NCBI GenBank assembly: GCA_051003195.1
Contig: JBPCLP010000047.1
Coordinates: forward strand, 149,745-213,744
DNA from: Candidatus Sumerlaeaceae bacterium
Lineage (GTDB): Bacteria; Sumerlaeota; Sumerlaeia; Sumerlaeales; Sumerlaeaceae
DNA length: 64,000 nt
Direction of reading: 5' to 3'
Both the position numbers and the translations under genes were made by a program. Positions within the stretch are counted from its first letter, which is position 1, and each line of letters opens with the position of its first letter. Below, in pieces: positions 26,384 to 50,400 of the stretch. The notes below the pieces were generated by a model. That model was not told the DNA's origin. It did no database searches and saw nothing but the letters and a program-made list of their open reading frames with translations.

Positions 26384-26423
26384 CAATCAAAGCTAATCAA
26401 AGCTAATCAAAACTAATCAAACA
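26384..26423. repeat. Tandem decamer repeat (gctaatcaaa-type, about 4 copies).
   Basis: Direct read: caatcaaagctaatcaaagctaatcaaaactaatcaaaca. Confidence 0.8.
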
Positions 26424-27180
26424 ATTGCGTCTCTCATTGGCATTTCACGCTTTAAATCAAACAGGCCGATGGGGTAATTTCGCCCTTTGATTTCCGTAAT
26501 GTTCAGATCATGTTGCCTCCGGTTCTTTTGTTTTTCGGTCGGGAGGCGTGTGAGGCGAATGCGGATTGCGGATTGCGGAGTTCAAGCCGGAATCGGAATC
26601 GTCGGCGCAAGGATGGCAGGTTGCGTTGCCAGGGTCATCATAATGTCTCCTTCCTGCTTTCAAGTTCAAGTTGGTAATTTCGCCACTTGAATAGCGGTAA
26701 TCCTCGCGTAAGGTTTCGCCGGGCCGAGTGGTCCGCGGGGCTTGCCGGATGGGTGGCTTTTTCCGTCAAGCGCAAAGACATAAAACGCCACGCGGATTGG
26801 GCGCAGACGTGCCCTCTGCCGTCGGTCACGGCGTACGAGGCTGCATAGTTGTCAAAGAACGTGTTCAGCTTAGCTTTACTACGCGGGCAGGTATACACCA
26901 GTTCTGGAGAGCGTGTCACTTCCCTGGCGTCACCTTAGCGTGGGCTAAGTCCAATAAAGTCGAAGAGAGTTTTTTGGGCGAAGGTGCGCTGGTGCGTGCG
27001 GGCAACTTTGGATGAAGGTCCTTGCTCGACGTGCGATAGCGATGAGACCTTCCGTGAGAAAGTTGATCGTCGAGAGTGCGAAGGGGACGGTCGGCCACGT
27101 CCCCGTAACTTCCTACCGCGAACGTTATTCTGTCCCCGTTATTCTACGTGTTGACAATCACGGCGAGACGGTAGAGATAT

Positions 27181-27684: not shown

Positions 27685-28587
27685 TCAGTGAAACTGCTCC
27701 AGCTTCTTCGCGATATTCTCCAGCTGGTCAGCTGCTTCGTCCAGGTGCTTGCCCAGCGACTTGATGACTTCGTCTACCTGATCGAGGTCGCCGTTCAGCT
27801 CATTCTGCTGCTGCTTCACCGCGTCCTGGGCCTTTTGAACATCCTCCGCAATTTCGTGTCCTTCGCTTACCAGCTTGTCCACAACCTGCCGGGCTGTCTG
27901 AAGCGCCTCGCCAAATGCGGACTGCGCCTTGGCTGCTGTCTCCTGTAACAGCACGTCCAGCTTGTCCTGCACGGTATTGTCGATCGTATCGATCTCGTCG
28001 CCGAGCTTGCGCGTCTGATCCTCGATCTGCTGCTTCGCCTCTTCGAAAAATGTGTCCAGCTGATGCCCATGCTGCTCCAGCTCGCTCTGGTTGGTCTTCA
28101 GCTCATTGGTCACTTTATCAAAACCCTGCTGCGCCATGGCCATTTCCTGCGCCAGCTTATTTTCCACCTCTTCGGCCTTTGTATCGAGCTCGGCCAGGTC
28201 CTTTTCGGTGTCGTTCAGAACTTCGTCCATCTCGGCAGCGAGCTTCTTCGCTTCGTCGTGGAAGGATTGTACGTCCTGCTCGAGTTGCTCCATCTCGTCC
28301 TCAGCCTTTTTCTGCACCTGTTGGAGGCGGGATTCCAGCTCGTCGAGCATGGTGTCCAGTTCCTTGTGCGCCTCAGTGCGCGCTTCGCGCAGTGCCTCGA
28401 TCTTGTGCTGCAGATCGGTATGCTTTTGATCGAGCTTGTCTGCTTCTTTCTCCATGTCAGCCGCTGCCTGGTCGGCGTCGTTCATCGTATCTTCGAACTT
28501 ATCGTGGGCCTTCTTCAGCTTGACCGTGGTGGCCTCGAGCATAGTTTCCAGTTCATTGCTCAGGTCTACGAGTGTCTCTTCAGCCAT
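27685..28587 (-). CDS. Acidic 11-mer-repeat amphipathic helical protein, paralog 4 (apolipoprotein/LEA-like; hypothetical).
   Basis: 300 aa. Rich in E/D/K/Q/L. No TM segment and no catalytic motif. Hydrophobic residues recur with 11-residue phase when the sequence is stacked in 11-mers. Confidence 0.6.
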   Translation of the reverse strand: MAEETLVDLSNELETMLEATTVKLKKAHDKFEDTMNDADQAAADMEKEADKLDQKHTDLQHKIEALREARTEAHKELDTMLDELESRLQQVQKKAEDEMEQLEQDVQSFHDEAKKLAAEMDEVLNDTEKDLAELDTKAEEVENKLAQEMAMAQQGFDKVTNELKTNQSELEQHGHQLDTFFEEAKQQIEDQTRKLGDEIDTIDNTVQDKLDVLLQETAAKAQSAFGEALQTARQVVDKLVSEGHEIAEDVQKAQDAVKQQQNELNGDLDQVDEVIKSLGKHLDEAADQLENIAKKLEQFH

Positions 28588-28624
28588 GTTGTCTCTCCAG
28601 CTCTAATTCGGTTACGCCGCGCGC

Positions 28625-29476
28625 TCAGCGCCAGTCCACGTTCATTTTACCCACGGTTTCGCGTGCCGATTCCAGGCTGCGCTCCAGTGGCTTCACAACT
28701 TCATCCAGTTCCTTGATGGCCGGCTCCAGCTCGCGCGTCGCATTGTCGAGGTCCCTGGCAAGCTGGTATACTTTATCACCGAAATCCCGCATGGTCTCTT
28801 CGAGTTCGTCCGTCTCCTGGCGCAACTCCTTACGCATACCGTCATGCAGCTCTTTTTCCATCTCCGTAATAAACTCCTGCATCGGGTCCCCGACCGCCTC
28901 ATCAAGCGCCTGCATAAGCCGTCCGCCGAGGTTGTCGGCCGATGCGGAAAGCGATGCCTCGATCTTTCCAATTTCTTCCCGCACGATCTGCTGGGCTTCC
29001 TGCAACTCGGCCTGTAGCAGAGCCACCCCTTTCTCAGCGTGTTCGACAACGTCGTCCGCCGCCTTCTTCAGGTCCTGCATCTCCTGCTGCGCCTCGTTGA
29101 TCGATTGGGAAAGCGAGTGCTTGGTCTGTTCCATCTTTGTGTGCAGCGCGGCAACGCCTTGTTCCACTTGCGTCATCCCGTTGGCGATCGTCTGCTGCCC
29201 CTGGTCCAGCCGGGTCTTCATCGCCTCAAGTGTCTGGCATGTTTCGTGGATGGTCGTCTCGAGGCTCTGCTTTCGCGCGCGCGTCTGGTCGAACAGATTC
29301 TTCAGCGCCAGCGCCATGTCCTCGATGCGTTTCTGGAATTCGTCGCGCTGTTGTTTCTGCTCGGTTGCCAGCCCCTCGAAAAAGCCGGTGACTGTGTCCC
29401 AAAGAGCCTTCGCACCGCTTTCGACAGTGCTGATCACAGTACCTAGTATCTTATCCTGGTCGTCAGACATGACCAT
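28625..29476 (-). CDS. Acidic 11-mer-repeat amphipathic helical protein, paralog 3.
   Basis: 283 aa. Same composition and repeat character as its neighbours. Confidence 0.6.
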   Translation of the reverse strand: MVMSDDQDKILGTVISTVESGAKALWDTVTGFFEGLATEQKQQRDEFQKRIEDMALALKNLFDQTRARKQSLETTIHETCQTLEAMKTRLDQGQQTIANGMTQVEQGVAALHTKMEQTKHSLSQSINEAQQEMQDLKKAADDVVEHAEKGVALLQAELQEAQQIVREEIGKIEASLSASADNLGGRLMQALDEAVGDPMQEFITEMEKELHDGMRKELRQETDELEETMRDFGDKVYQLARDLDNATRELEPAIKELDEVVKPLERSLESARETVGKMNVDWR

Positions 29477-29501
29477 CCTTCCTCATAATCCTGGTGTGTA
29501 A

Positions 29502-30491
29502 TTAATCGCCGTACGAGGCGGCAGCCTGCTGGAATTCCTTCAGCGCGTCCTGCGCACCGCCCAGAAGTTCCATGCTCTTATTCATTTCCTTCGCGGCATC
29601 GACACCGTTGTTCAATGCGTCGATCATCTCATCAAGGCTCTGCTTCAGTTCGCCCAACGGCTTTTTAATGTCGTCGTCGAGACCCTTTTCGATCTCTTCA
29701 AGTTCTGTCTCTTCGAAAAGGTCGGCCAGTTCTTTCATGGATGTATTGGTAAGCTGCGTCAGGCCATCCAGGAAGGCGTCACCATTCTTTTCAAATTCTT
29801 CGAAAGAGTTGTCAAAGCTCTTGGAGCATTTCTCCAGAGCGCCCTCGATCTGCTCTTCGTATTTGTCGTCGAGGCCATCTTCGTATTGCTTCAGTGCGTC
29901 TTTGGCTTTGTCGGCCAGTTCCTCTTCCAGCTTGTCGGCGAGCTTATCGAGAAGATCAGTCACTTCCTGGTGCAGGGTACTCGTCTCTTTGGTTTCGTTG
30001 TCGAGATGCTGGTCCAGTTCGTCGAACTCGGTCTCAGTTTGCTGGCGCAGCTGTTTGCCTTTGTTGATCATCTCCTGCACAGAGGCCAGGAATTTCGTGC
30101 GCTCCTGCTCCAGCTCATCGGCTTCCTCGTTAAGGTCCTGGTCGCCCGCATCCACAGCTTTATCGAATTCCTGCTGCAGCTCTTCTATTTCGCGGTGCAG
30201 ATTCTCAGCGCGATCCCTGGCTTCCTCAATGACGTGCCGCGTCTCATCAACGACAGACGATATCTCGCTGCGGGTCGTGGCGAGGGCGGTTTGCTGGTCC
30301 TCCAGCGTCTGGTCGAAATCGTCATAATCCGACTCGAGTTTTTCGCGCGCTTCTTCGCGCTCCTCGATCTCTTTATCGAGGTACTCCATGTTGGCGTAGA
30401 TCGCTTCGTCCGCTTCTTTCAGATCGTGGAGCAGCTTCTCAAACTTGTCCATGATCTGGTCGTAATACGCCCAGCACTTTTCGATGCTCAT
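29502..30491 (-). CDS. Acidic 11-mer-repeat amphipathic helical protein, paralog 2.
   Basis: 329 aa. Same composition and repeat character as its neighbours. Confidence 0.6.
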   Translation of the reverse strand: MSIEKCWAYYDQIMDKFEKLLHDLKEADEAIYANMEYLDKEIEEREEAREKLESDYDDFDQTLEDQQTALATTRSEISSVVDETRHVIEEARDRAENLHREIEELQQEFDKAVDAGDQDLNEEADELEQERTKFLASVQEMINKGKQLRQQTETEFDELDQHLDNETKETSTLHQEVTDLLDKLADKLEEELADKAKDALKQYEDGLDDKYEEQIEGALEKCSKSFDNSFEEFEKNGDAFLDGLTQLTNTSMKELADLFEETELEEIEKGLDDDIKKPLGELKQSLDEMIDALNNGVDAAKEMNKSMELLGGAQDALKEFQQAAASYGD

Positions 30492-30603
30492 CGTGAGGTC
30501 CTCTGCCCGTCCTGATGTGTTGTTCGACTATATGAAAGTGATTGGCTACTGCATGTAAGAGTTAGCGTACTGCAAAAACCTGTGTTTCGGATACTCCAAC
30601 AAA

Positions 30604-31527
30604 TCAGTCCAGCAGGCCCTCGATCGCTTCGAGGTCTGCTTTCCTGAGTTCTTTCAAGAAATCTCCGAGGTCCTCGCTGCCGCGAGCGACGTCGCCGTGC
30701 AGTTGCTCGATGTCGTTCACGGGACCGCCGGATGTCACCATTTCCCGAACTTCCTCCGCCTTCTTCTCGACCTTCTTGATCGCGTCGGTCACGTCCTGCG
30801 CTGCTTCGGGCAGCTCGTCTTTCGCATATTCGTTAAACCGCTTGATCAGGTCGTTGAGCGCTTCGTCGACGGACTCTTTCAGATTAGTGAGCGCCACATC
30901 CAGTTCCTTATGCAGCTTGTTGTTCGCATCCTCGATCTCGTCGAGCACGCCTTTGACCCCGTCCTTGATATCGTCGTGCATTTCACCGGACGATTTCATG
31001 AGGTCCTGCTGCTTGTCCTCGATCTCCTTCAGCGTATCGTCTACGGCCTTGTGCAGGTCGTCGATTTTCTCGTCGGACTCGGTTAGGTGTTTGCCCATCT
31101 CGGTCACATACTCGTCCGAAAGAGTCTGGAGTTGCTCGAGCTGGTCGCGCAGTTCGTGCAGGTGGCCCGGTATATCGTGCAATTTGCCTTCCAGCGTTTT
31201 TCGAAAACGCGCGACACCTGCGACGATGTCGTTCTCGACTTCGTCCAGCTGGTCGTCGACCTTCTGGATGGCTGCTTTCGCTTCCTCGGTCCGGTCGTGC
31301 AACTCTTCCATCTCGTGGTCGAGGTACTGGTCCATTTCGTCGATGTCCTGGTGCAAATCCTCGAGCCGGTTCTCGATTTTCGCACGCCCGTCGTCGACCA
31401 CCTGGTCAAGATCGACGTTGTGCCTCTTGAAATCTTCCGCGGTCTCGTCGAGCTCTTCGGTATGCTTCCGGACCTCAAGCGCGAGCTCAATCCCCGCTTC
31501 GATCATCTCGCCTAGTGAACTAGACAT
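30604..31527 (-). CDS. Acidic 11-mer-repeat amphipathic helical protein, paralog 1.
   Basis: 307 aa. Same family. Its start overlaps the 3' end of the upstream HExxH gene by 8 nt. Confidence 0.6.
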   Translation of the reverse strand: MSSSLGEMIEAGIELALEVRKHTEELDETAEDFKRHNVDLDQVVDDGRAKIENRLEDLHQDIDEMDQYLDHEMEELHDRTEEAKAAIQKVDDQLDEVENDIVAGVARFRKTLEGKLHDIPGHLHELRDQLEQLQTLSDEYVTEMGKHLTESDEKIDDLHKAVDDTLKEIEDKQQDLMKSSGEMHDDIKDGVKGVLDEIEDANNKLHKELDVALTNLKESVDEALNDLIKRFNEYAKDELPEAAQDVTDAIKKVEKKAEEVREMVTSGGPVNDIEQLHGDVARGSEDLGDFLKELRKADLEAIEGLLD

Positions 31528-32278
31528 GTAAAGTCGCTGAAGGCGCTGAAGTCTTGGCCAAACGACGGTGAGCGGTTACAGTTTTGGTCGAATCGGTTGT
31601 CGTTAGTAGCTTGCGAAGTAAGTGTAAAAAACTGCCTGCATCCGGTGTTTTAACTTCACGTGGACTTGTCTGATCTTTTAAGTATGCTGGCCTCGCTGGG
31701 GTTATTGCCGGTACGCACTCACCTGCGGACTCCTTGAATCCTGCTTGGAATTCAAGCTTGTCGCTCTTGTTAAGTCTATTAAAGCTAGGATGCAATTGCT
31801 GCGCATTCCATGCATCCTTGTGGGTGCAATGATTTTTGTTACTCCAATAAGGATCAAAGCGCAATGCATCATTTCCAGTACGCAGAACTTCTTTTTGAAG
31901 AGGTTTGAACTGCTCTACGTGTTTGTATTCGTGCACTAATACATTCTGCAAGAACGCTACTCGCTCTTCTGGAGACCGCTGATATCCTGTTCGCAAGGCA
32001 TCGGGTCCTACGTAAATTGTGATGTCACAACTACGTTTCGGTTGCCCAAAGCTTTTGTACTCTCTGAGAGGCCCCACACCTGTCACAGCATACGGGAATT
32101 CATCGTCTGTCAGTTTTTCTCGTCTTACAAAATCGCGTCCCTTTAGGTACGGATCATAAATCACTTTTACTCCGTCGGTTGCAAGTCCAGAAAGCTCTAC
32201 CGGACGCTTTGCTGTTTCTAGTGCTGAGATTAAGTTCATGTCAATTTGTTCAACACTGTTATACTTTCTCAGGTCCAT
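31520..32278 (-). CDS. Zincin-like HExxH protein (DUF4157-like putative metallopeptidase); low-GC gene.
   Basis: 252 aa. ITIYVGPDALRTGY...VAFLQNVLVHEYKHVEQ matches, from memory, the DUF4157 HExxHxxQ signature (consensus like LLAHELtHVvQ). GC is about 46%. Confidence 0.5.
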   Translation of the reverse strand: MDLRKYNSVEQIDMNLISALETAKRPVELSGLATDGVKVIYDPYLKGRDFVRREKLTDDEFPYAVTGVGPLREYKSFGQPKRSCDITIYVGPDALRTGYQRSPEERVAFLQNVLVHEYKHVEQFKPLQKEVLRTGNDALRFDPYWSNKNHCTHKDAWNAQQLHPSFNRLNKSDKLEFQAGFKESAGECVPAITPARPAYLKDQTSPREVKTPDAGSFLHLLRKLLTTTDSTKTVTAHRRLAKTSAPSATLHV

Positions 32279-32389: not shown

Positions 32390-32632
32390 TCAGTTCTGAA
32401 ACGACGCGACCATCGCCCGTTTCCTGACGCCGCTCGCCGATGGGTCGTCGTCCACAACCTGGCAGTCCGCGGTGCGCCACCGGCGCTCCGCGCCGTTCGT
32501 GTCGACTCCGTAAATCTGCCCGTCGGGCCAGATGTTTTCCACACGGATTACGGCACGCAGCCGCGTGTGCATTGCTACATCGCCAGGTTTAAACATGTCG
32601 TCCCTGCCTTCACTGATGGATATGGTGCACAA
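32390..32632 (-). CDS. Small hypothetical protein (possible SH3/Tudor-like fold).
   Basis: 80 aa, MFKPGDVAMHTRLRAVIRVENIWPDGQIYGVDTNGAERRW. Located between the repeat array and the HExxH gene. Coding status is uncertain. Confidence 0.3.
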   Translation of the reverse strand: MCTISISEGRDDMFKPGDVAMHTRLRAVIRVENIWPDGQIYGVDTNGAERRWRTADCQVVDDDPSASGVRKRAMVASFQN

Positions 32633-32786
32633 AGCTGTCTTCGCTTACTGCCCTGGTATCCCGATGTCGGATTGGATGAATCCGTCAGGATTGCTGGATC
32701 AGTAAACCTTTCAGTCGAGCAGCCGTGGGATAGAAATGCAATGCCTTTCTGCACCCCGGTGTGCCGTCCCAGAGATTCGTTATATA

Positions 32787-33163
32787 TTTCGGTTTGCGGC
32801 GCCCCTTCAGGGCGCGAAAAATGGGGTGCTGTAACCCAGGGCCGCGGATTCCAAAAAGCCGTAATCCTTACCCTGGGCTGTGTCCCGCTGCACCTTCGGT
32901 GCAAAAAACCTGAACTGAATTGTGCCGCATATTTTCGGTTTGCGGCGCCCCTTCAGGGCGCGAAAGATGGGGTGCTGTAACCCAGGGCCGCGGATTCCAA
33001 AAAGCCGTAATCCTTACCCTGGGCTTTGTCCCGCTGCACCTTCGGTGCAAAAAACCTGAGGGCTGCGGATTCCAAAGCCGGAATCCTTACCCTGGGCTTT
33101 GTCCCGCTGCACCTTCGGTGCAAAAAACCTGAGGGCTGCGGATTCCAAAAAGCCGGAATCCTG
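32787..33163 (+). repeat. Tandem array of a structured repeat unit (family 1). Composition X(58 nt)-Y(73 nt), linker, X-Y, Y, truncated Y.
   Basis: Direct read. X = tttcggtttgcggcgccccttcagggcgcgaaaRatggggtgctgtaaccca. Y = gggcYgcggattccaaa(a)agccgKaatccttaccctgggctKtgtcccgctgcaccttcggtgcaaaaaacctga. Hairpins include gcaccttcggtgc and cagggccgcggattcc/ggaatccttaccctg. Confidence 0.85.
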
Positions 33164-33171
33164 GAATTAGA

Positions 33172-34926
33172 TTAACCCGCCGATTCGAGTTCTGTCAGCA
33201 CGCGCAGCAGATCGTCCATCTTGTCTTCCATCGCGTTGCGGTCGTCACCCTCTATCAGGCGCTTCAATTCCGCTGCCTGGTTTTTAACTTCCCTGCTCAG
33301 CGGATGCCCGCCGCGGCTGCCCGCCATGCTCTCTGCGCGACCTACGAGATTGCGCGCCTCATCCACCACGCTCTCCTGAATGCGGCTGCGCAGCATGCCG
33401 GTAACGCGTTCCTTCGCATCCTTCACCATCCGCTGCTTCTCGGCATCCGATAGCCGCGTATCCGTCGCTGCGATGGTGATCTTTTTCTCCACGCCAGTGG
33501 CGAGGTCCTCCGCGCGGCATTCAAGGATTCGGTCCGTCGTCAGTTTAAACGTCACTTCCACGCGTGGCACGCCGCGCGGCGCCGGGGTAATGCCCTCAAT
33601 GCGCAGCAGGTCGAGGAAGGTATTCTCGCTGGCCGTCAATTCCTCTCCCTCGTAAATCGGGAAGCTGATCGCCTCCTGGAAATCGCGGGTTGTCGTGAAG
33701 ATATCCTTCGCCTCGGTCGGGTACGTAGAATTGCGCTCAATAATAGGTGCGAACTGGTCGCTCTGCAAGCCGACACCCAGCGAGAACGGCGTCATGTGAA
33801 TGATGACCGGCTTCTCTTTACCATAGCGTGCGGCCAGCGTATCCTGGATATCACCTTCCAGCGGCGCGAGCACCAGGCTCTGCACTGCTGCGCCCATCGC
33901 CACCACTTCTTCCGGTGAGATATCGCGGTTGGGTTGCTTGTTCACCTTGTCGCGCACCACCTTCTGCACCAGTGGAATGCGCGTCGAACCGCCTACGAGC
34001 AGAACCGTATCGATCTTATCCGCCGTCAGATTTGCATCAGAGATCGCCTTCAATAGCGGCTCTACCGTGCGCTGCACGATGTCAGTAATCAATTCGTCAA
34101 ACTTTACGCGAGTAAGCGTGGTGTCCAGCGTCAGCGGGCCCTTGTCCGTCATGGTCACCGCTTCAACAAGGATGTGAGTTTCCTTCACTTCGCTCAGCTC
34201 GATCTTCGCCTCTTCGGCGGCTTCTTTCAAGCGCTGCATGGCAATCGGATCTTCCTTCAGGTCGATCCCGTGCTGTGTCTTAAATTCCTCCAACAGCCAT
34301 TCCATGATGCGTTTATCAATATCGTCGCCGCCGAGGTGTGTGTCGCCCTGGATCGCAAGCACCTGGAACACGCCGGAAATAACCTCGATAATCGAGACGT
34401 CAAACGTTCCGCCGCCGAAGTCGTAAACGAGAAGCACCTGGTCCTTATTTTTATCCAGACCATACGCCAGCGCGGCGGCCGTCGGCTCATCGATGATGCG
34501 CCGCACCTTCAGGCCCGCAATTTCGCCGGCGTCCTTCGTTGCCTGCCGCTGTGCATCCGTGAAGTATGCCGGCACCGTGATAACCGCCTGCACCAGCTCC
34601 TCGCCAAAGTAGTCCTCGGCATCCGTTCTCAGCTTTTGCAGAATTATCGCGGATATTTCCTGCGGCGTGTATTGCTTCCCTTCGATGTTCACACGGTGCT
34701 GCGTCCCCATGTGACGTTTAATCGAGAAGATCGTGCGACCCACGTTCATCACGGCGCCACGCTTTGCCTTTTTACCGACCAGGATCTCGCCACTCTTGGT
34801 GAAACCGACGACCGATGGTGTCAGGCGCTCGCCCAGGCTGTTCGGCACGATCATTGGGCCGTTCTTTTCGAAAACGGCCACCACGGAGTTAGTGGTTCCA
34901 AGGTCAATGCCCATAATTCGGCTCAT
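33172..34926 (-). CDS. Hsp70-family chaperone (DnaK-like, short C-terminal lid).
   Basis: 584 aa. Motifs IDLGTTNS, DLGGGTFD and VLLVGGSTRIP. The substrate-binding beta domain is present. The lid is shorter than in canonical DnaK and there is no GGMP/EEVD-type tail. Confidence 0.85.
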   Translation of the reverse strand: MSRIMGIDLGTTNSVVAVFEKNGPMIVPNSLGERLTPSVVGFTKSGEILVGKKAKRGAVMNVGRTIFSIKRHMGTQHRVNIEGKQYTPQEISAIILQKLRTDAEDYFGEELVQAVITVPAYFTDAQRQATKDAGEIAGLKVRRIIDEPTAAALAYGLDKNKDQVLLVYDFGGGTFDVSIIEVISGVFQVLAIQGDTHLGGDDIDKRIMEWLLEEFKTQHGIDLKEDPIAMQRLKEAAEEAKIELSEVKETHILVEAVTMTDKGPLTLDTTLTRVKFDELITDIVQRTVEPLLKAISDANLTADKIDTVLLVGGSTRIPLVQKVVRDKVNKQPNRDISPEEVVAMGAAVQSLVLAPLEGDIQDTLAARYGKEKPVIIHMTPFSLGVGLQSDQFAPIIERNSTYPTEAKDIFTTTRDFQEAISFPIYEGEELTASENTFLDLLRIEGITPAPRGVPRVEVTFKLTTDRILECRAEDLATGVEKKITIAATDTRLSDAEKQRMVKDAKERVTGMLRSRIQESVVDEARNLVGRAESMAGSRGGHPLSREVKNQAAELKRLIEGDDRNAMEDKMDDLLRVLTELESAG

Positions 34927-34935
34927 GCGAAGCTG

Positions 34936-35466
34936 TTATCTCCTCTCGTTGTATGCTACGACGACTTTTGCATCCCGCAGAAGTTTGCCCCGGAACACAT
35001 ACCCTTTTTGTCTTTCGCTGATCACCGTTTCATTTTCGTGATCGTCAGACGGCCTGTATTCCACCACCTCGTGCAAGTTCAGATCAACTTTGGATCCTAC
35101 AGACTTCAACTGGTAGAGCCCATACGTTTCAAGCAGGCTGAGCAGCCGAAAGTATATGCTCTCAACACTCTTTAGCCAGTTGTCAATGGCTTCGCTCTGC
35201 GGATAACTGCGGGCCAGGTGAAGCACCCGATCGAAGCTGTCCAGTGTCGGCAGCAGACCGCGGATGAGCTTCTCCAAATCGGCAGGCGAAGCGCTCCGCT
35301 GCTGCAGCTCACGGTTGAGATTCTGGAGCTGCTCATTCTCCATGAGAATTTTTGTGGTCAACTGAACCAGGTCCGACGAATCCTCATCCGGCGAAAGGAA
35401 CACCGGCAAGGGCTGCTCGTCGATGACGAATTCGTCAGCCAGCAGATGGCGCAGTAGTGTTCTCAT
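34936..35466 (-). CDS. grpE: GrpE-like nucleotide exchange factor.
   Basis: 176 aa from the ATG at 35464-35466 (MRTLLRHLL...); the ORF track extends it to 35610. Its start overlaps the stop of the upstream J-like gene as ATGA. C-terminal GrpE-like beta region: GYVFRGKLLRDAKVVV. Confidence 0.65.
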   Translation of the reverse strand: MRTLLRHLLADEFVIDEQPLPVFLSPDEDSSDLVQLTTKILMENEQLQNLNRELQQRSASPADLEKLIRGLLPTLDSFDRVLHLARSYPQSEAIDNWLKSVESIYFRLLSLLETYGLYQLKSVGSKVDLNLHEVVEYRPSDDHENETVISERQKGYVFRGKLLRDAKVVVAYNERR

Positions 35467-36752
35467 GCGCGCATCCGGATGTCGGAGATGGCCTTCTTGG
35501 CCAGCTTGTTCTTTGGATCCAGTTCGAGAACCTTCTGGAACTCGGTAAGCGCGTTCCGGCGGTCGCCTTTGCGCAACAGCGTGTCGGCAATTTCGAAATG
35601 GATTTCCCACTGGTTGGGCAGCATCTTCTGCAGTTCCTTGAAGTGCACCAGCGCCTGCGTGTAGTGGCCGCCTTCCTTCAGCTTTTTACCCACTGCAAGC
35701 CGCGCGCGCATCATGCTGTCCTTCAGCATGTGCGCCTTCGGGTCGGCAATCAGCCCGCGGCGCCACGTATTGAATGCCATTTCGAATTTACCGGCGTTCA
35801 GGTACGCCCAGCCCAGTTGGTTCACCACGTCCAGGTTTTTGGGGTGCTGGTTCTGCAGCTTGATAAATGCCTGCACAGCGTCGTCGTACTTCTTCTCCTC
35901 GATCATCGCGCATGCGAGGGAGTATTGCGCTTCGAAGTCCGAAGGGTTGATCTTGAGCACTTCCTTATAGCTCTCGATCGCCTGCTCTTTTGTTTCTTCA
36001 GTCTGCACGCTTTCAAGCGCTTTGGCACCGTGGTGCTTGTGCACCTCCATCAGGCAATTGCGCAGGTACTCGTCGCCCGGGTTCTTCTCCAAATCCTCTT
36101 TCCAGCGCTTTACCAGTTCTCCCCAGTAGCGCTGCGCCCGCTCACGGTCGCCTGCTTTTTCCGAAGTCAGCGCGAGATTGTGGATGATATCCGTGCTGCC
36201 GGGATCCATCTGCAGCGCGTTCTCCCACAGCTTGATCGCCTCGTCATTCAGGTCATGCAGCGCGTAATAATAGCCCAGGTACTGGTAGCTGAAAATGAGA
36301 TTGCTCTTCGCCCGCTGATGGGTGGAATCGAGCTGGAGCACCGCCACCCAGTCATTGATCGCCTCCGTCCACAGCTTCTTCTGCGTATGGTAAAAACTCA
36401 TCCGAAGGTGATTTGCAATCAGCGCAGGTTTGATCGCTGGATTGGGCGTTCCCGCAGTCAGGTGCTGCTCGAGGCCCTTGATGCGCGCCTGGAGATCTGG
36501 GAGCGGCTCCTCTACTTTCTCCTCATCCGACCACGTAAATTCACCCTTCACATAGTTATATGTGAAGACGTCTTCATGGGCGCGTTTCTTCGGGTCACGA
36601 AGTCGCTCATACGCTTTCTGAATGACCATAAAGCGTTCGGTATGCTTTTCCGGGTCATATCGCTTCACCTGCTCCACATACGCTAACTTGATTTCGTGGT
36701 CGTTAGCGCCTTTGCGGAGGTTCAGAATGGTGTAAGCGTTCTGTTCTGCCAT
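35463..36752 (-). CDS. J-like domain protein fused to TPR repeats (Hsp70 co-chaperone-like).
   Basis: 429 aa. N-terminal J-domain-like helix pattern (YTILNLRKGANDHEIKLAYVEQVKRYDPEKH) in which the canonical HPD tripeptide aligns to DPE. At least 8 TPR-like repeats follow. Confidence 0.7.
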   Translation of the reverse strand: MAEQNAYTILNLRKGANDHEIKLAYVEQVKRYDPEKHTERFMVIQKAYERLRDPKKRAHEDVFTYNYVKGEFTWSDEEKVEEPLPDLQARIKGLEQHLTAGTPNPAIKPALIANHLRMSFYHTQKKLWTEAINDWVAVLQLDSTHQRAKSNLIFSYQYLGYYYALHDLNDEAIKLWENALQMDPGSTDIIHNLALTSEKAGDRERAQRYWGELVKRWKEDLEKNPGDEYLRNCLMEVHKHHGAKALESVQTEETKEQAIESYKEVLKINPSDFEAQYSLACAMIEEKKYDDAVQAFIKLQNQHPKNLDVVNQLGWAYLNAGKFEMAFNTWRRGLIADPKAHMLKDSMMRARLAVGKKLKEGGHYTQALVHFKELQKMLPNQWEIHFEIADTLLRKGDRRNALTEFQKVLELDPKNKLAKKAISDIRMRA

Positions 36753-38960: not shown

Positions 38961-39124
38961 CAGGTTTCCGGCTTTTTGGAATCCGCAGCCCACAGGTTTT
39001 TTGCACCGAAGGTGCAGCGGAACACAGCCCAGGGAAAGGAGGCCACGGCTTTTTGTGGTCGACGCAGCCCTGGGTATATCGATCCAATTACATCGCGCCC
39101 TGAAAGCGGCGCCGGAAAGCGCGC
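38961..39124 (-). repeat. Dispersed copy of the family-1 structured repeat (reverse orientation, partly rearranged). It is preceded by a family-2 fragment at 38872-38934.
   Basis: ttttttgcaccgaaggtgcagcggaacacagcccagggaaagga...cgcgccctgaaagcggcgccggaaa matches the reverse complement of the 32787-33163 units. Confidence 0.75.
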
Positions 39125-39243
39125 AAATTTCATTACCAATCTCTGGGACACCGCACTAGGATCACGCCAGCGTCGCAATTCCTGTGGAAGTTCTGTCATA
39201 GCCGAACTTGGTTTCCACCGCTTCAGAAATCCGGAGGTTTCCA

Positions 39244-44814: not shown

Positions 44815-44927
44815 TATGCCGAAGTTCATAGCTATACTTCAGGAAGCTTTCTAGCTCGGACGGCACACAAAACCAGTGAACGAATTAATGCGACAGGACT
44901 CATTAGGTTGCGCATAATTCAGTTCAG

Positions 44928-45054
44928 TTTTTTTGCACCGAAGGTGCAGCGGAACATAGCCCAGGGTCAGGATTCCGGCTTTTTGGAATCCGCAGCCCTG
45001 GGTTTCACCATCCCATTTTTCGCGCCCTGAAGGGGTGCCGGAAACCGAAAATAT
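44928..45054 (-). repeat. Dispersed copy of the family-1 structured repeat (reverse orientation). It is preceded by a family-2 fragment at 44855-44905.
   Basis: tttttttgcaccgaaggtgcagcggaacatagcccagggtcaggattccggctttttggaatccgcagccctgggtttcaccatcccatttttcgcgccctgaaggggtgccggaaaccgaaa is close to the reverse complement of one X-Y unit. Confidence 0.85.
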
Positions 45055-45217: not shown

Positions 45218-46726
45218 ATGCACAATGCTGTGAATATAGACCCGCTGCCCGGCGCAAAAAAGCAGGCCCCGTACGTCGCGTCGGAATTAAACGAACTCAA
45301 CCTGGACGCCGCCACCGCCGGCTTTGATATCACCACGCCCCTACACTCCTGGCGGGTAAACTCGCAGGCGCCCGACCGACTCGTTACTGGGCTCGCCCCC
45401 GGCACTTTGTTAAAGGGAGCGAAATACGAGTTCATACTCAAACGGGTACTCGGCACAGGCGGTATGGGCGCAGTCTACCTCGCCGACTCTCAGCTTCCGC
45501 CACAATCCGCAGCGCCCGCATTGCCGCGCGAAGTTGCCGTTAAGGTGTTCCGCAACGAATGGGGCACCAACCCTGGGGAACTCCTCAAGCGCGAGCTCTC
45601 CGCTTTGCGCGCGCTCCGTCATGATCGCATCCCAACTCTCTTCGACTGGAACACACAGGGCCAGACGCCGTTCGTCGCCTGCCGATACTACCCCGCCGGC
45701 AGTTTGTCCGATGAAATTTCCCGCATTGGTCATCTGCCACTTCCTGCGGTGTGGCGTCTGCTGGAAGACCTTCTCGTCGCGTTGTCCGCCGCGCATCGGG
45801 CCGCTGTCCTGCACCTCGACGTAAAACCCGGCAATGTTCTGTGCGACACTGACGGCGGATACCTGCTCGCGGACTTCGGCATCAGCCAGGGTTTCCTTGT
45901 CTCCAAAGCGGTGCTGCCAACCGGCCTCGGCGCGCCCGTCTTCCAATCCCCCGAACAGCGGCGTGCCGACAGCGACGCTTTTGACGAACGAACCGATTTA
46001 TGGGGCGCGGGAATTACAGTCTGGACTGCTCTCACCGGCGCGCATCCATTGGATCTGCGTAACCTGATCAATGCCTGCGCGGGTGGTACACACGGTCTGC
46101 CGCCCCCCAGCGTATTGCGCGACGACTGCCCCGCCTCGCTCGAAGAAGCACTCATGCCGCTGCTCGCGCTTGATCCGGATCAACGCCCTGGCAGCGCTGC
46201 TGAAGCACTCGCTCGCGTTCATGCGTCCAACCCAACGAGCTCGCAGTTTGGCACGGGCACTCCATCCCCGCTTCGCCCTGCCGACAGCGCCGTGCGACGT
46301 TCCGTATTCGGCACCATGATGGATCCTCTCTGGCGGGCCATCTGCCGCAGCGGCGAACTCGACGACCGCCTTGTCCACTTTCGACCCGGTGATTTGTTGT
46401 GCGGCGAGGGCGCCGACAGCTATCGTACATTCGTGCTTTTGCGCGGCAGCGTGCGCATCGAGCGCGAAGGCAAACAGTTGCAGCAGGAAGAACGAGAAGG
46501 CGTTTTCCTCGGCGAAGTCACTTCGCTCATCGGTGCACCGCGCACCGCCACCATGATCGCAATTACAGATGTCTGGGCACTTGCGTTCAATCCCGCCCAG
46601 CTCGAAAAATTCGTCACACGCAATCCTGCCGTCGCCATTCGTCTCATGAAAGTTCTGGCGGAGCGACTCCATCGCGAGGTGCAGCTTAACCTTGCCGCTG
46701 GCGTCAACTCCGTGGCCAACACATGA
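45218..46726 (+). CDS. Ser/Thr protein kinase with a C-terminal cyclic-nucleotide-binding (cNMP) domain.
   Basis: 502 aa. Kinase motifs: VLGTGGMGAVY, AVKVF, HLDVKPGNVL, DFGIS. C-terminal CAP-family cNMP domain: FRPGDLLCGEGADSYRTFVLLRGSVRIE...GEVTSLIGAPRTATMIAITD. Confidence 0.75.
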   Translation: MHNAVNIDPLPGAKKQAPYVASELNELNLDAATAGFDITTPLHSWRVNSQAPDRLVTGLAPGTLLKGAKYEFILKRVLGTGGMGAVYLADSQLPPQSAAPALPREVAVKVFRNEWGTNPGELLKRELSALRALRHDRIPTLFDWNTQGQTPFVACRYYPAGSLSDEISRIGHLPLPAVWRLLEDLLVALSAAHRAAVLHLDVKPGNVLCDTDGGYLLADFGISQGFLVSKAVLPTGLGAPVFQSPEQRRADSDAFDERTDLWGAGITVWTALTGAHPLDLRNLINACAGGTHGLPPPSVLRDDCPASLEEALMPLLALDPDQRPGSAAEALARVHASNPTSSQFGTGTPSPLRPADSAVRRSVFGTMMDPLWRAICRSGELDDRLVHFRPGDLLCGEGADSYRTFVLLRGSVRIEREGKQLQQEEREGVFLGEVTSLIGAPRTATMIAITDVWALAFNPAQLEKFVTRNPAVAIRLMKVLAERLHREVQLNLAAGVNSVANT

Positions 46727-47334
46727 GCTCCTCGGCTGCTCCGCTCATTTATCTTTCGGACTACGATCCCAAATGGCCGCAGTTGTTTGACTCAGAAGCG
46801 GCTGAAATCGCAACCGCGCTTTCCGTCCCTGCCGGCGCGGTCCACCACATCGGCAGCACCGCTGTGCCCGATCTCCGCAGCAAGCCTCTCATCGATCTGC
46901 TGGTCACCGTTCCCGATGTGAAGAGCCGCGACGAGTATTTACGCATTCTCGGGCCGCTCGGCTACGACTACCGCGAAGTGCACGATCCCGGACGCCTCTT
47001 CTTCGAAAAGCGTCGGCCCTTTCGATACCATCTTCACGTGGTCGAGCAGGACGGCTGGCACTACTGGCGGCTCGTACTGTTTCGGGATCGGCTTCGACGC
47101 GATCCGCTCACCGCGGCCGCGTACGTGGAGCTCAAGCGACGCCTTGCCGACCAGCATCCCGATAACCGCGATCTCTACAGCGGTGGTAAATCCCTCTTTG
47201 TTACGCGAACAGTCCAGGCCGAGCTAAAGCGCTATCCCGAATTGCTGGCGCGGCTGCGCGCTTCCGGCGCCCCGGTCGACGTTATCTTCCAGCACAAACG
47301 CGACCCCGACACCGAATCCTTCCCCATGACCTGA
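46723..47334 (+). CDS. GrpB-family protein (UPF0157, nucleotidyltransferase-like).
   Basis: 203 aa. DYDPKWPQLFDSEAAEI...HIGSTAVPDL is characteristic of GrpB. The start overlaps the kinase stop by 4 nt. Confidence 0.7.
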   Translation: MSSSAAPLIYLSDYDPKWPQLFDSEAAEIATALSVPAGAVHHIGSTAVPDLRSKPLIDLLVTVPDVKSRDEYLRILGPLGYDYREVHDPGRLFFEKRRPFRYHLHVVEQDGWHYWRLVLFRDRLRRDPLTAAAYVELKRRLADQHPDNRDLYSGGKSLFVTRTVQAELKRYPELLARLRASGAPVDVIFQHKRDPDTESFPMT

Positions 47335-47340
47335 CTCCTG

Positions 47341-47435
47341 GTGTGCCGAATCAGAAGTTCCTATCCAGTTAGAGCGCGGAAGATGAGCTCAATTCGACAC
47401 ACAAAATCAGTGAACGAATTAATGGGACACCAGAC
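47341..47435. repeat. REP-like hairpin element (family 2), copy C, between the convergent grpB-like and cyclase genes.
   Basis: gtgccgaatcagaagttc...aattcgacacacaaaatcagtgaacgaattaatggg. The 5' arm is identical to copies A and B. The 3' arm is imperfect. Confidence 0.65.
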
Positions 47436-47446
47436 CAGCGCACCAC

Positions 47447-50400
47447 TTACTTCAGATTTTGAATCAGCGCACGAGTCCTGCCCTGCTCGGGAACGTTGTT
47501 CTGTTTGCGCGCCGCGTCCAGTGCCAGCGCTGCCGCCACTTTAGCCTTGGCCGGGTCGTTGGTGCGCGCGTGATGCTGCGCCGTCAACCGCAGCAGCCGC
47601 GGGCGCTCCGCCTCGTAGCCGAACAATTGCAGCGAACGCTCCGCCTTTGCCAGCCGCTTGGCCAGCCCGTTCCCCGGCTTTTCAACAATCGCCGCCTCAA
47701 TATCCACCAGCTCCAGCGAGAACATCCGCTCCGCGTCGCCCAGTTCCTCTGCCACCCGGTTGGCCTGCTTTACCAGCTTGCGGCACTCCCCCGGATTATG
47801 CAGGATCAGGTTACTAAGCGCCAGGTTCTCCAGCGCGATGGCAGCGCTGCGGCGGTCCTCGATTTTCTCCGCAATTTCATACGCCGCCGCACTGTGCCTC
47901 ATCGCATCCACTCCATGCTGCTGCGATAAAAACAGGTTCGCAAGGTTCGCATGTGTCGCCGTCAAAACCTGCTGGTACTGTAACCGTTCCGCCAGCGCCA
48001 GTGCCTCACGGTAGTGTTTTTCCGCAGCTTCAGAATTGCCCAGGTTTTCCTCAAGAATTCCAAGGTTCATCACCGTCGCACAAATCAGGAACTTATCGCC
48101 CGTGATCTGCTGGAATCGCAGCGCCTCCCTCAGCAGCCCCGCTGCCTTCTTCAGCTCTCCCGCTTTCCACTCCACCAGCGCAAGGTTGTTGCGCACCGCG
48201 GCGGCGATGCTCGGATGACCCTCGGATAAATCCACCTCCAGCGCCGTTTCGAACAGCTCACGCGCTTTGCCAAAATCACCGCGGCTCCACCAGCAAAGCC
48301 CCAGCCCCTGCACAAGGTCGGCAATCACATCCACATCGCCATGCTTGCGCGCCATCGGCAATGCCGTCTCGAACTCTTTCTGCGCCCGGTCATACTCACC
48401 TGTCATCTGCAGCGCCAGCCCCGCCTCCAGGCGTATGCGGCTCAGCAGCCGGTTATCGCGCGATTTCCCCAGCGCATCCAGCGCCGAGGCCAGGCTTTCC
48501 AGCGCCCGCCGCGGTTCCCCCGACAGCCGCTGCAGTTTCGCCCGCGCGCGCAGGATCGTCGCCACCACCTTGCGATTCTCCGGCGTCGGTGCCAGCCGGT
48601 GCAACCGCTTCAGCGCCTCCTCATAATGCTCCATCGCATCCGGTATCGCACCCATCCCGCTGGCCTGGTCGCCGCTCATTCTCAGGTAAGGTATCGAACG
48701 CGCATCGTCTTCCGCCTGCGTCCAGTGGTACGCCAGCACCGGCGCATAAGGCGCAAGCCGGTCCGCGTATTTCCTCTCCAGCTCCGTCGCGATAAACGTG
48801 TGCAGTTCCCGACGCTGACGCACCAGCAGCGTGCGGTAGCTCACTTCCCGGGTGATATGGTGCAGGAAGAAAAACTCCAGCCCCGTCACGGTAATGTTAT
48901 CGTCCAGCAGTTGCAGCGTCTTCAGCGAATACAGCCGCGCCAGCAATCCCTCCTGGATAAAATTGAAAAACTCGATAAACTCCAGCGAGAACCGCTTGCC
49001 CAGCACCGCCGCGCATTGCAGCACCAGCTTGCGCCGCTCGTCCAGCGAGTCGATCCGCGACTGCAGTATCTCCAGCAGGCTCGGCGGAACCAGTTCGCCC
49101 GCCGACGTGCTCGGGTTTTCCGGGTCGAACTCCGCGTACATCGACGCCGGTTTGATCCCTTCTGCGATCGCCCGCGCCGCATTGCGCGCAAGCTCCATCA
49201 TATAGAACGGGTTGCCAGCCTCCTGGTGAATCAGCCGCTCCCGCACCTCCGGCAAGATATCCTGCAAATCAGCCAGGGCGCCAAACAGCGCCCGCCGACT
49301 TCGCAGGTCCAGCCCCCGCAGCCGCACCCGTTCCAGCGCCCGCATCTGCGCAATGTCCGTGCTCTCCTCATTGCGATACGCCACCATGAAAAACGTCTTC
49401 TTCGGCGGCGACGCCAGCAGCGCGTTCAACGCCTCCGTGCTCGTACGATCGCTCCATTGCAGATCGTCCAGGATCAGCACCAGCGCCGTTGCGCGCCCCG
49501 CTATCCGTTCCAGCAATGCGCGCAGCTCCGTGCGCAACAGCCGTTGCGCCGCCAGCGGCGGAAGCGCCTGGATATTATCCAGCGCCCGCGGATCACCCAG
49601 CATCGCCAGGATCGGCGTCGCATCCACCCGCGAATACCCCAGCCTCTCCAGCGCACGCTCCACCCGCTTCCAGTCACTCTCGCCCGGGTTGCGCGCTGCG
49701 CCCTCCAGCAGCGACGACAGCACACCGCGCCACAGCTCCCACGGAACCTTCGCGCTGTACGGCGCGCCCTCCACATGCCCAATCACCGCGCCCGCCTGCC
49801 GCTGCGCAAACTCCAGCGCCAGCCGCGTCTTGCCAATTCCCGGCTCGCCCTCCAGCACCACCCCGCACACCCGGCGCTCGCTCTCTCCGCCCGACACCCG
49901 CTCATACGTCGCCACGTCGCTGCCGCGGCCATCAAAGCAGCGCACCCACACATCCGTCAGCTTCTGCAGCTCGCGCTCGCGACCCACAAACGGCACCGAG
50001 AAATCCCGACGCTGTGCCTCCGGCCCCCTCGCCGACAGCACCTCGTAAACCATCACCTTCTTCGCGATATTCTTAAACTCGTGCATCCCGGACTTCTTGC
50101 ACTTGAACAGCTCGCGCACGATATCATACGTTTCCGGCCCGATCATAAGCGCGCCCGGTTTCGCCACCCCCTTGATGCGTGCCGCCAGGTTCACCGCGTT
50201 GCCAAATACCTTGTAAATGGGTGGCGTACGCGTCCGAATCACCGAGCTCAGCACGACCCCCGTCTCAATGCCTGCCGACGCCTTCACCCGGTGCCCGTGC
50301 ATTTCCGGCATCGCCTTGATCCGTTCCAGGATCGCCAGCGCCGCGCGCACCGCGCTCTCCGCGTCCCGCTCATACGCCATCGGCGCGCCAAACACCGCAA

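Follow-up and report, generated by a model that had tools for sequence, protein, structure and literature searches.

A tandem array downstream of an Hsp70 gene in a Sumerlaeaceae genome is probably a local cluster of a REP/REPIN-like, Y1-transposase-linked repeat

Architecture of the array

We analyzed a stretch of 64,000 nt from a Candidatus Sumerlaeaceae bacterium (GenBank assembly GCA_051003195.1, contig JBPCLP010000047.1, positions 149,745 to 213,744; hereafter the window, whose first letter is position 1), in which a tandem array of hairpin-rich repeats at 32787-33163 lies directly 3' of an Hsp70/DnaK-family gene. The Hsp70 open reading frame (ORF) is on the minus strand and the array starts 8 nt 3' of its stop, as a preliminary description made from the letters alone had reported. 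Direct reading and repeat finders also upheld the order of units given there: two copies of a bipartite unit (X-Y) separated by a 19-nt linker, then an additional Y and a truncated Y. Tandem Repeats Finder resolved the region into a period-146 repeat (32782-33059, 1.9 copies, 97% matches, score 535) and a period-73 repeat (32984-33162, 2.4 copies, 94% matches, score 319), and a repeat search returned 127-nt copies at 32787-32913 and 32933-33059 (98%) together with a shifted copy at 33006-33132. Zero chance matches to the core words of the X-Y unit are expected (100 shuffles). No coding signal was seen in the array units, and the periods of 146 and 73 nt are not multiples of 3. A search of the array for inverted repeats gave a single 12-nt one (83%), with no terminal inverted repeats within the unit.

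Each X-Y unit carries three hairpins, hp1 in X and hp2 and hp3 in Y, and is referred to below as a module; in the following list, the extents of the full modules and the bit scores are those of covariance models R1 and R2 (see below) unless direct reading is named.

32787-32913, plus strand: first X-Y (direct reading)
32914-32932, plus strand: 19-nt linker, ACTGAATTGTGCCGCATAT (direct reading)
32933-33059, plus strand: second X-Y (direct reading)
32783..32909, plus strand: module copy 1, the first X-Y (R1 93.1 bits; R2 72.5 bits, E 4e-16)
32799-32815, plus strand: hp1 of copy 1, GCGCCCCTTCAGGGCGC
32835-32877, plus strand: hp2 of copy 1, CCCAGGG...CCCTGGG, inner stem GGATT/AATCC
32890-32902, plus strand: hp3 of copy 1, GCACCTTCGGTGC, followed by A6 at 32903-32908
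32910..32932, plus strand: 3' tail of copy 1 fused to the shortened 5' leader of copy 2, CTGAACTGAATTGTGCCGCATAT, including the 19-nt linker
32929..33055, plus strand: module copy 2, the second X-Y (R1 93.7 bits; R2 72.8 bits)
32945-32961, 32981-33023 and 33036-33048, plus strand: hp1, hp2 and hp3 of copy 2
33060..33132, plus strand: extra Y, 73 nt, consisting of hp3 and an hp2 that lacks its outer 5' arm (Tandem Repeats Finder, period 73; partial R1 match at 33074-33128, 19.8 bits)
33133..33163, plus strand: truncated Y (Y'), 31 nt, inner hp2 hairpin only, GGGCTGCGGATTCCAAAAAGCCGGAATCCTG, with GAATTA next

The hairpins of the preliminary description stood overall and needed correction in small details of hp1 loop and pairing, the loop of the last hairpin and the inner arm of hp2. 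On the plus strand hp1 reads GCGCCCC-TTC-AGGGCGC, its seventh pair existing only as a T.G wobble on the minus strand; hp3 in the array is GCACC-TTC-GGTGC, with a loop of 3 nt; and the inner arm of the long Y hairpin is GTAATCC in copies 1-2 and GGAATCC in copies 3-4 only. We also agree that the array is not CRISPR-like, an identity rejected because the units abut without unique spacers of similar length; the sole “spacer” is the 19-nt tail/leader junction. A tRNA or tmRNA origin of the 73-nt Y was rejected as well, ARAGORN having found neither in the window.

Array copies 1 and 2 show 96.9% pairwise identity, and such near-identical X-Y units joined by a hybrid of tail and leader indicate a local 146-nt duplication. 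The extra Y is a mosaic whose 5' part is of the Y' type (GGGCTGCGG...GGAATCC) and whose 3' part resembles copy 2, the pattern expected of unequal recombination or slippage. The array may have grown in two steps: an X-Y unit with its tail would have been duplicated (146 nt, copies 97% identical), and the 73-nt unit would then have arisen when Y and the terminal Y' recombined unequally or slipped.

Dispersed copies in the window

Two further X-Y loci, missed in the preliminary description, occupy unrelated intergenic sites in the window.

38961..39128, minus strand: copy B, a full module (38996-39128) plus Y' (38961-38991) (R1 80.3 bits; R2 64.4 bits)
44928..45054, minus strand: copy C, a single full module (R1 90.9 bits; R2 65.5 bits)

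Copy B lies between a GHMP-kinase gene and a GH97 gene, and copy C between a LacI-family gene and a Ser/Thr-kinase gene, so that the window holds three intergenic loci in 64 kb with four full and three partial units. Module identity is 97% within the array pair, about 90% between the array and copy C, and about 78% between the array and copy B. The inner stem of hp2 in copy B is altered on both sides (CCAC/GTGG vs TTCC/GGAA). All three loci have in common a 5' leader, GGTGT..TCCCAGAGATTnGTnA, and a 3' tail, CTG(AACT)GAATTRTGC; at copy C the shared leader extends to about 45075 and the tail to about 44912, and the tail CTGAACTGAATTATGC that follows array copy 1 is also found 3' of copy C. The terminal Y' hairpin, GGGCTGCGGATTCCAAAAAGCCGGAAnCCTGG, occurs at two of the three loci, and Y' plus GGAATTA terminates copy B as well. 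A 14-nt fragment, GTGTGCCGTCCGAG, lies on the minus strand at 44855-44868, about 60 nt 3' of copy C, and is nearly the same as GTGTGCCGTCCCAGAG, the leader that precedes array copy 1 at about 32756-32771. The leader could be what is left of another insertion, or a repeated piece in its own right.

A three-hairpin module family in several phyla

Exact words of the window copies were without matches elsewhere: the most conserved 24-mer, CCGCTGCACCTTCGGTGCAAAAAA, had none in GTDB representative genomes and none in JGI metagenome contigs, GCGGATTCCAAAAAGCCGNAATCC had none in metagenomes, and a literature search for hp2 words gave unrelated eukaryotic sequences only. The Sumerlaeaceae sequence variant is thus lineage-restricted, and only a structure-type pattern, confined to the base of hp2 (ACCCAGGGCNGCGN{17,25}CCCTGGGCTNTGT), reached other phyla. 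It retrieved 44 loci from at least 5 phyla, with up to seven loci per draft genome: 14 in Planctomycetota, 14 in Verrucomicrobiota plus one on a similar chromosome, 12 in Lentisphaerota, and one each in Sumerlaeota, Hydrogenedentota and a metagenome-assembled genome (MAG) labelled Acidithiobacillales. The module in that MAG (97 bits; L018 1763-1887) lies outside the phyla of the Planctomycetota-Verrucomicrobiota-Chlamydiota (PVC) type that hold nearly all matches, and could reflect mis-binning or horizontal transfer.

The unit of the family measures about 125 nt and has three hairpins; hp1, the linker and hp3 are common to the loci while lying outside the imposed pattern, and played no part in retrieval. 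The first hairpin, equivalent to the hairpin of X, has a 5-7-bp G+C stem and a TTCA-type loop and is preceded in most lineages by the unpaired tag TGTCnC. After a variable spacer of 20-35 nt follows the long hairpin hp2, whose base is conserved (ACCCAGGGCkGCG ... TTGCCCTGGGCTnTGT) and whose tip varies, and then a linker, TGTTGTC, and hp3, which is itself tagged and has a 5-bp stem with a TTCG, TTCA or GTTG loop. Where most lineages have TGTCnC before hp1 and hp3, the window has GCGG and TCCCGCT.

The alignment of the family gave strong evidence of covariation. RNAalifold proposed 21 consensus pairs, 11 of them with compensatory changes; 95.8% of the cells were paired vs 82.8% in shuffles, and both-sided compensatory cells numbered 94 vs 27, a value reached by 0 of 500 shuffles. 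The signal collapsed when the 3' partner was slid by 1-3 columns. One-sided changes were confined to 3 of 777 cells, and a larger alignment held 11 GT/TG and 22 AC/CA pairs vs 1685 Watson-Crick pairs. When the window was scanned with covariance model R2, which comprises foreign sequences only (including four modules obtained through a protein search), exactly the four full modules were returned, at 64-73 bits and E about 1e-14 to 1e-16, placing the window copies in this family. In Lentisphaeria, too, modules can stand in direct, same-strand tandem pairs (L022, L027 and L046). Several Lentisphaeria modules (L005, L015, L021, L022, L037, L040, L042 and L046) carry an extra short hairpin after hp3, e.g., tttGCCGCttcGCGGC or tttGCCCCattcGGGGC, and the loci with this hairpin also score better on the Rfam motif Acido-Lenti-1, which is discussed below.

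Head-to-head doublets and Y1 transposase genes

Covariance model R1 gave about 80 strong matches in 399 kb, and outside the window most of these form head-to-head (“-+”) pairs with abutting hp1 ends, that is, palindromic doublets of about 250 nt. Of 23 doublets classified with crude ORF calls, 13 have convergent genes on their two sides, 8 co-directional and 2 divergent ones; the enrichment at convergent genes is the distribution reported for repetitive extragenic palindromic (REP) sequences by Di Nocera et al. (2013; PMC3733652). Solo modules in other genomes are found in both orientations relative to genes.

At one locus (L004) and its near-identical counterpart (L033), a 149-aa ORF sits between inverted modules, 13-23 nt away from them. 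Its product matches Pfam Y1_Tnp (E 1e-24) and passes the NCBIfam IS200 equivalog model NF033573 (61.5-63.2 bits, cut-off 55), and its best matches in PDB are 2fyx and the IS608 TnpA and ISDra2 TnpA structures. Further loci were fetched by protein similarity to this Y1 ORF alone, and their flanks were then scanned for modules:

L049: minus-strand module 2366-2484 (59.7 bits), gene 2501-2950, plus-strand module 2969-3087 (68.2 bits)
L050/L051: minus-strand module 2329-2433 (40.5 bits), gene 2501-2953, plus-strand module 2946-3049 (26.5 bits)
L048 (Prosthecobacter fusiformis): doublet upstream of the Y1 gene, plus-strand module downstream (62-75 bits)

The layout of inverted module, Y1 gene and module is therefore present in four independent lineages, with Y1 proteins of 149-150 aa. 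The flanking modules measure about 105-130 nt, and their distance to the gene is at most about 70 nt (13-23 nt in L004 and L049); a Y1 HUH transposase is the only gene that we found enclosed by modules. The doublets of Planctomycetaceae DS2.012 (L006, L026, L031 and L032) show a variant form: they end in GGTTTT/AAAACC, their left arm has a shortened hp2 without the variable tip, and in at least L006 and L032 an outer inverted repeat (TTTTGAAGTTGCGC ... GCGCnACTTCAAAAAGCGC) lies beyond the doublet ends. The outer repeat and the shortened left arm indicate that the full element of DS2.012 is longer and that its arms are not identical.

Hsp70 loci of relatives and an assembly break

The module is absent from the orthologous loci that we compared. 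A covariance-model scan with filters off did not find it in four related Sumerlaeaceae Hsp70 loci (about 61 kb), at which Hsp70 has 82-89% amino-acid identity to that of the window, and conservation of the module with Hsp70 was rejected on this basis; the family is patchy among close relatives. The relative at 89% identity has a canonical hairpin-plus-T-run terminator 3' of Hsp70, and those at 82-84% have other intergenic sequence, after which comes a convergent polA or an alpha-amylase gene. Gene order downstream of Hsp70 is not conserved, with a terminator and then a convergent gene in one relative, a convergent polA in two and an alpha-amylase gene in one (the downstream regions are L001 3130-3190, L052 and L053 11756-12000, and L002 7756-8007). 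Among the compared loci, a small ORF, an HExxH gene and a coiled-coil gene follow Hsp70 in the window only; the array thus lies at, or close to, the boundary of a rearrangement or an insertion.

The same organism (Hsp70 100% identical) is also represented by an independent short-read assembly from Logan. That assembly breaks off 32 nt past the Hsp70 stop, inside the first unit met; the terminal segment, L003 5640-5671, is equivalent to window 33140-33171. A break of this kind is what a multi-copy repeat causes in assembly, and MAGs of the Sumerlaeaceae lineage probably under-represent the family. We advise against annotating the array next to Hsp70 as a heat-shock-specific riboregulator; the sequence is repeat DNA, and it breaks short-read assemblies.

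Origin of the array: mobile DNA or structured RNA

In view of these results the array is probably a cluster of solo ends, locally expanded, of a non-autonomous, REP/REPIN-like repeat linked to Y1 transposases, rather than a dedicated regulatory RNA. In the proposed mechanism the hairpins would form on single-stranded DNA and be recognized and cut in trans by a Y1 transposase, by analogy with the TnpA enzymes of the IS200/IS605 family and with the REP-associated tyrosine transposases (RAYTs); the head-to-head doublets without a gene look like internal-deletion derivatives of gene-bearing copies. We infer that a Y1 enzyme mobilizes the modules in the Sumerlaeaceae genome too, and the hairpins may have a side effect on the 3' end of the Hsp70 operon mRNA through stabilization or partial termination, as reported for REPs. 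Three features of the family favor DNA over RNA. Wobble pairs are nearly absent on both strands, the signature of a DNA palindrome and not of an RNA (they are too few on either strand for the strand to be assigned from them), the arms of a doublet lie on opposite strands, and inverted modules enclose a transposase gene.

Several observations weigh against this interpretation. In a tblastn search, no Y1 gene was found in the 64-kb window, nor in the 44 pattern loci except L004/L033, and the Y1 protein of those two loci fails the NCBIfam RAYT model NF047646 (23.6-24.7 bits, cut-off 80). The window has no inverted doublets, its modules being direct or solo only. Its three loci are all co-oriented with co-directional flanking genes (n=3, chance probability 0.25), a shared orientation that could point to selection on the transcript, and as RNA the strand in gene sense folds somewhat better (z -3.0 and -5.2 vs -2.2 and -2.6). 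The foreign loci were fetched with a pattern derived from the window, so the conservation of the hp2 base was partly imposed, as was part of the R2 score. Finally, the mobility of the modules is read from the layout of the sequences and not from observed transposition.

The observations on orientation and folding would be accommodated if the module were a structured noncoding RNA, either a trans-acting small RNA (sRNA) or a stable element of the 3' untranslated region, related to Acido-Lenti-1, with the array as tandem RNA genes or domains. Sub-threshold matches to the Rfam model of Acido-Lenti-1 (RF01687) recur over hp2 and hp3, that motif was rated “probably RNA” on covariation (Weinberg 2010; PMC2864571), and the module alignment itself covaries strongly. 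Covariation, however, cannot separate RNA from hairpins of single-stranded DNA. The preliminary description had looked to compensatory changes among copies as a test of the RNA; they are present, but fit the DNA hairpins equally well. The near-lack of G.U-type pairs on either strand, the opposite strands of the doublet arms, the inverted modules around a transposase gene, the lack of promoter-like or terminator-like sites in the array, the solo modules that elsewhere stand in both orientations relative to genes, and the patchy occurrence among close relatives all argue against an RNA, which we consider quite unlikely. The preliminary description had also named a match to the terminal sequences of an insertion sequence (IS) or a miniature inverted-repeat transposable element (MITE) as grounds for abandoning the RNA, and on those grounds the RNA fails. 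A role mainly in cis, as a terminator, insulator or mRNA-stabilizing 3' structure of the DnaJ-GrpE-Hsp70 operon that separates it from the small ORF and HExxH genes, strikes us as unlikely too. Such a role would suit the start of the array 8 nt after the Hsp70 stop, the canonical intrinsic terminator that the relative at 89% identity has at the same position, the enrichment of doublets elsewhere between convergent genes, and the functions in transcription termination and mRNA stabilization hypothesized for REPs in PMC3733652. Yet a consensus scan of 32787-33163 found no promoter-like or terminator-like site, the regional counts equaling the shuffle expectation, and an intrinsic terminator or promoter in the array was rejected; on neither strand does a U-tract come after a hairpin, the A6/T6 run lying on the wrong side of hp3 for a terminator on both. 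The X-Y unit also stands between unrelated gene pairs, and a preference for 3' ends is expected as well from purifying selection against promoter disruption, so any effect of this sort would be secondary to the origin of the element. The suggestions in the preliminary description of a locus-specific RNA, an attenuator or an insulator were not borne out: the unit lies between unrelated genes and is absent from the Hsp70 loci of relatives, terminator-like sites are lacking on both strands, and the stems have almost no wobble pairs.

The remaining suggestion of the preliminary description, MITE amplification, came closest, in that the repeat is dispersed, multi-copy and non-autonomous; it erred only if a classical MITE is meant, derived from a DDE-type IS with terminal inverted repeats and target-site duplications. 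The unit is indeed a short, dispersed, non-coding intergenic repeat, and the window copies have similar short direct motifs at their ends (CCAGAGATT / CCAGAATTA on the 5' side, CTGGAATTA / CTGAATTA on the 3' side). But the units are without terminal inverted repeats, the end motifs are identical at all three loci (n=3) and so look like part of the element rather than locus-specific duplications, and the enclosed gene encodes a Y1 HUH and not a DDE enzyme. We consider a classical MITE very improbable.

Comparison with known repeat systems

The module family has many likenesses to the REP/REPIN-RAYT systems: both are multi-copy extragenic palindromic repeats in which a short tag, itself unpaired, precedes the hairpins on the 5' side; both occur singly, as head-to-head dimers and in clusters; and both favor sites downstream of genes or between convergent ones. 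Di Nocera et al. (2013; PMC3733652) described REPtrons and TIRtrons, in which REPs or long inverted repeats lie on both sides of a Y1 gene and also form dispersed families whose members occur singly, as dimers or in clusters; in Koribacter versatilis, for example, dispersed repeat families match the inverted repeats that flank Y1 genes, and Rhodopirellula baltica has many Y1 genes with flanking repeats (PMC3733652). The Y1 gene aba_1552 is designated a TIRYT there. The modules of other lineages conform to both layouts, with a Y1 (HUH) gene between two inverted copies, as in a REPtron, and between long inverted repeats of a dispersed family, as in a TIRtron/TIRYT. The REP tag is GTAG, whereas that of the module is TGTCnC, resembling the CGTC/TGTC class for which no transposase is known according to PMC3733652. 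A REP unit is a single palindrome of 20-40 nt and the module has three hairpins in about 125 nt; the module-flanked Y1 protein is without the RAYT signature and scores as an IS200 equivalog; and REPIN-type inverted doublets predominate among the modules of other phyla, whereas those of the window are solo or in direct tandem. To our knowledge REP families are mostly restricted to one species or genus, and conservation of the sequence and three-hairpin layout of a REP-like family in several phyla is unusual. The element is of a kind already known, REP/REPIN-like repeats with a Y1 transposase; its unusual traits are the three-hairpin unit, the cross-phylum conservation, the link to an orphan Rfam motif and the solo, direct-tandem modules.

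Elements of the IS200/IS605 family resemble the gene-bearing copies in three respects: the Y1 HUH transposase is small (about 150 aa), gene and ends together span about 720 nt, and subterminal hairpins are the likely recognition elements. In IS200/IS608 the left end is not an inverted repeat of the right end, whereas the module ends are inverted copies of about 120 nt, and gene-less copies of the module vastly outnumber gene-bearing ones, unlike in IS200/IS605. The bacterial interspersed mosaic elements (BIMEs) of E. coli and the mycobacterial interspersed repetitive units (MIRUs) are likewise tandem clusters of a dispersed intergenic repeat among co-directional, operon-like genes. BIMEs, however, alternate the orientation of REPs and the array units are direct, and the short ORFs that MIRUs contain are in phase with the genes on either side, whereas no coding signal was seen in the array.

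The Rfam check that the preliminary description had proposed gave no match at the gathering threshold in the window or in 18 foreign loci. At E<=10 the array region matched the rimP leader, mir-877, M23 and Acido-Lenti-1, all far below threshold and rejected as assignments. Over hp2 and hp3 the Acido-Lenti-1 model (RF01687) scored 15.9, 14.3 and 14.3 bits in the window and 24.2-34.2 bits in other phyla, all below its gathering score of 37, and its alignment (consensus CCUAGCGC...GCGCUAGGCUAauuUAUgcCGUGCCUUCGGCAC) shows both stems and the linker in the module. The core is alike in the two (CCyAGsGC...GCsCUrGG, the linker CUAnnUUnU and a short G+C hairpin with a UUC-type loop), the module has the GGCUAnnUU-type linker that joins two hairpins in RF01687, and the seed sequences in the supplement of Weinberg 2010 look similar to it (PMC2864571). 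That study listed 89 representatives from Lentisphaera and Acidobacteria, some with same-strand neighbors about 200 nt apart, and gave no function (PMC2864571); Lentisphaerae is a phylum also hit by our pattern. The model lacks hp1 and the variable tip of hp2, and Rfam types it as an sRNA gene, whereas the evidence on the module points to a DNA-level transposase substrate. We regard the window module as a relative of Acido-Lenti-1 and, by the Rfam threshold, not as a member, and we infer that a repeat associated with Y1 transposases accounts better for this class of motif. An orphan type of Rfam motif, the Acido-Lenti-1-like hairpin pair, is thereby tied to a repeat family flanking Y1 transposase genes.

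A broader scenario would see in the family an ancient, largely vertically kept, REPIN-RAYT-like partnership between the three-hairpin module and its small Y1 enzyme across Planctomycetota, Verrucomicrobiota, Lentisphaerota, Sumerlaeota and neighboring phyla, with Acido-Lenti-1 as one branch and with the solo modules of Sumerlaeaceae, all co-oriented with transcription, exapted as 3'-end or terminator-replacing RNA structures, for instance at the Hsp70 locus, at which a relative has a canonical terminator; taken jointly, these propositions seem to us rather unlikely. The cultured Prosthecobacter fusiformis carries a copy with gene and modules, so the proposed recognition of single-stranded DNA is directly testable, and the covariance model could be used to mask or annotate module repeats in genomes of the PVC group and Sumerlaeota.

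Neighboring genes and other features of the window

The genes around the array are arranged on the minus strand:

33172-34926 (stop included), minus strand: Hsp70/DnaK-family gene; product 100% identical to P0001, [quoted passage not shown]
34936-35610, minus strand: GrpE gene, upstream of Hsp70 (Pfam)
35463-36752, minus strand: DnaJ-TPR gene, upstream of GrpE (Pfam DnaJ and TPR)
32390-32632, minus strand: 80-aa ORF
31520-32278, minus strand: gene of a 252-aa HEYKH (HExxH) protein

Downstream of the array, on the strand of Hsp70, the 80-aa ORF and the gene of the 252-aa HExxH protein, neither of which has a Pfam match at E<=0.001, are followed by that of an acidic coiled-coil protein. The region 28001-32000 has a strong negative AT skew (-0.34 and -0.27 vs about 0 to -0.1 elsewhere) that coincides with minus-strand genes for highly acidic coiled-coil proteins; one of these, 30604-31527, gives matches to apolipoprotein-like helical repeats below the Pfam cut-offs. 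On the other side of the array, 46001-50000 may be a compositionally distinct segment, with a G+C content of 0.61-0.64 vs about 0.55 and a GC skew down to -0.23. A 10-nt tandem repeat, AATCAAAGCT, occupies 26385-26421 in a stretch of lower G+C (3.7 copies, 96% identity), and a 7-nt repeat, TGCGGAT x2.9, lies close to it at 26560-26579.

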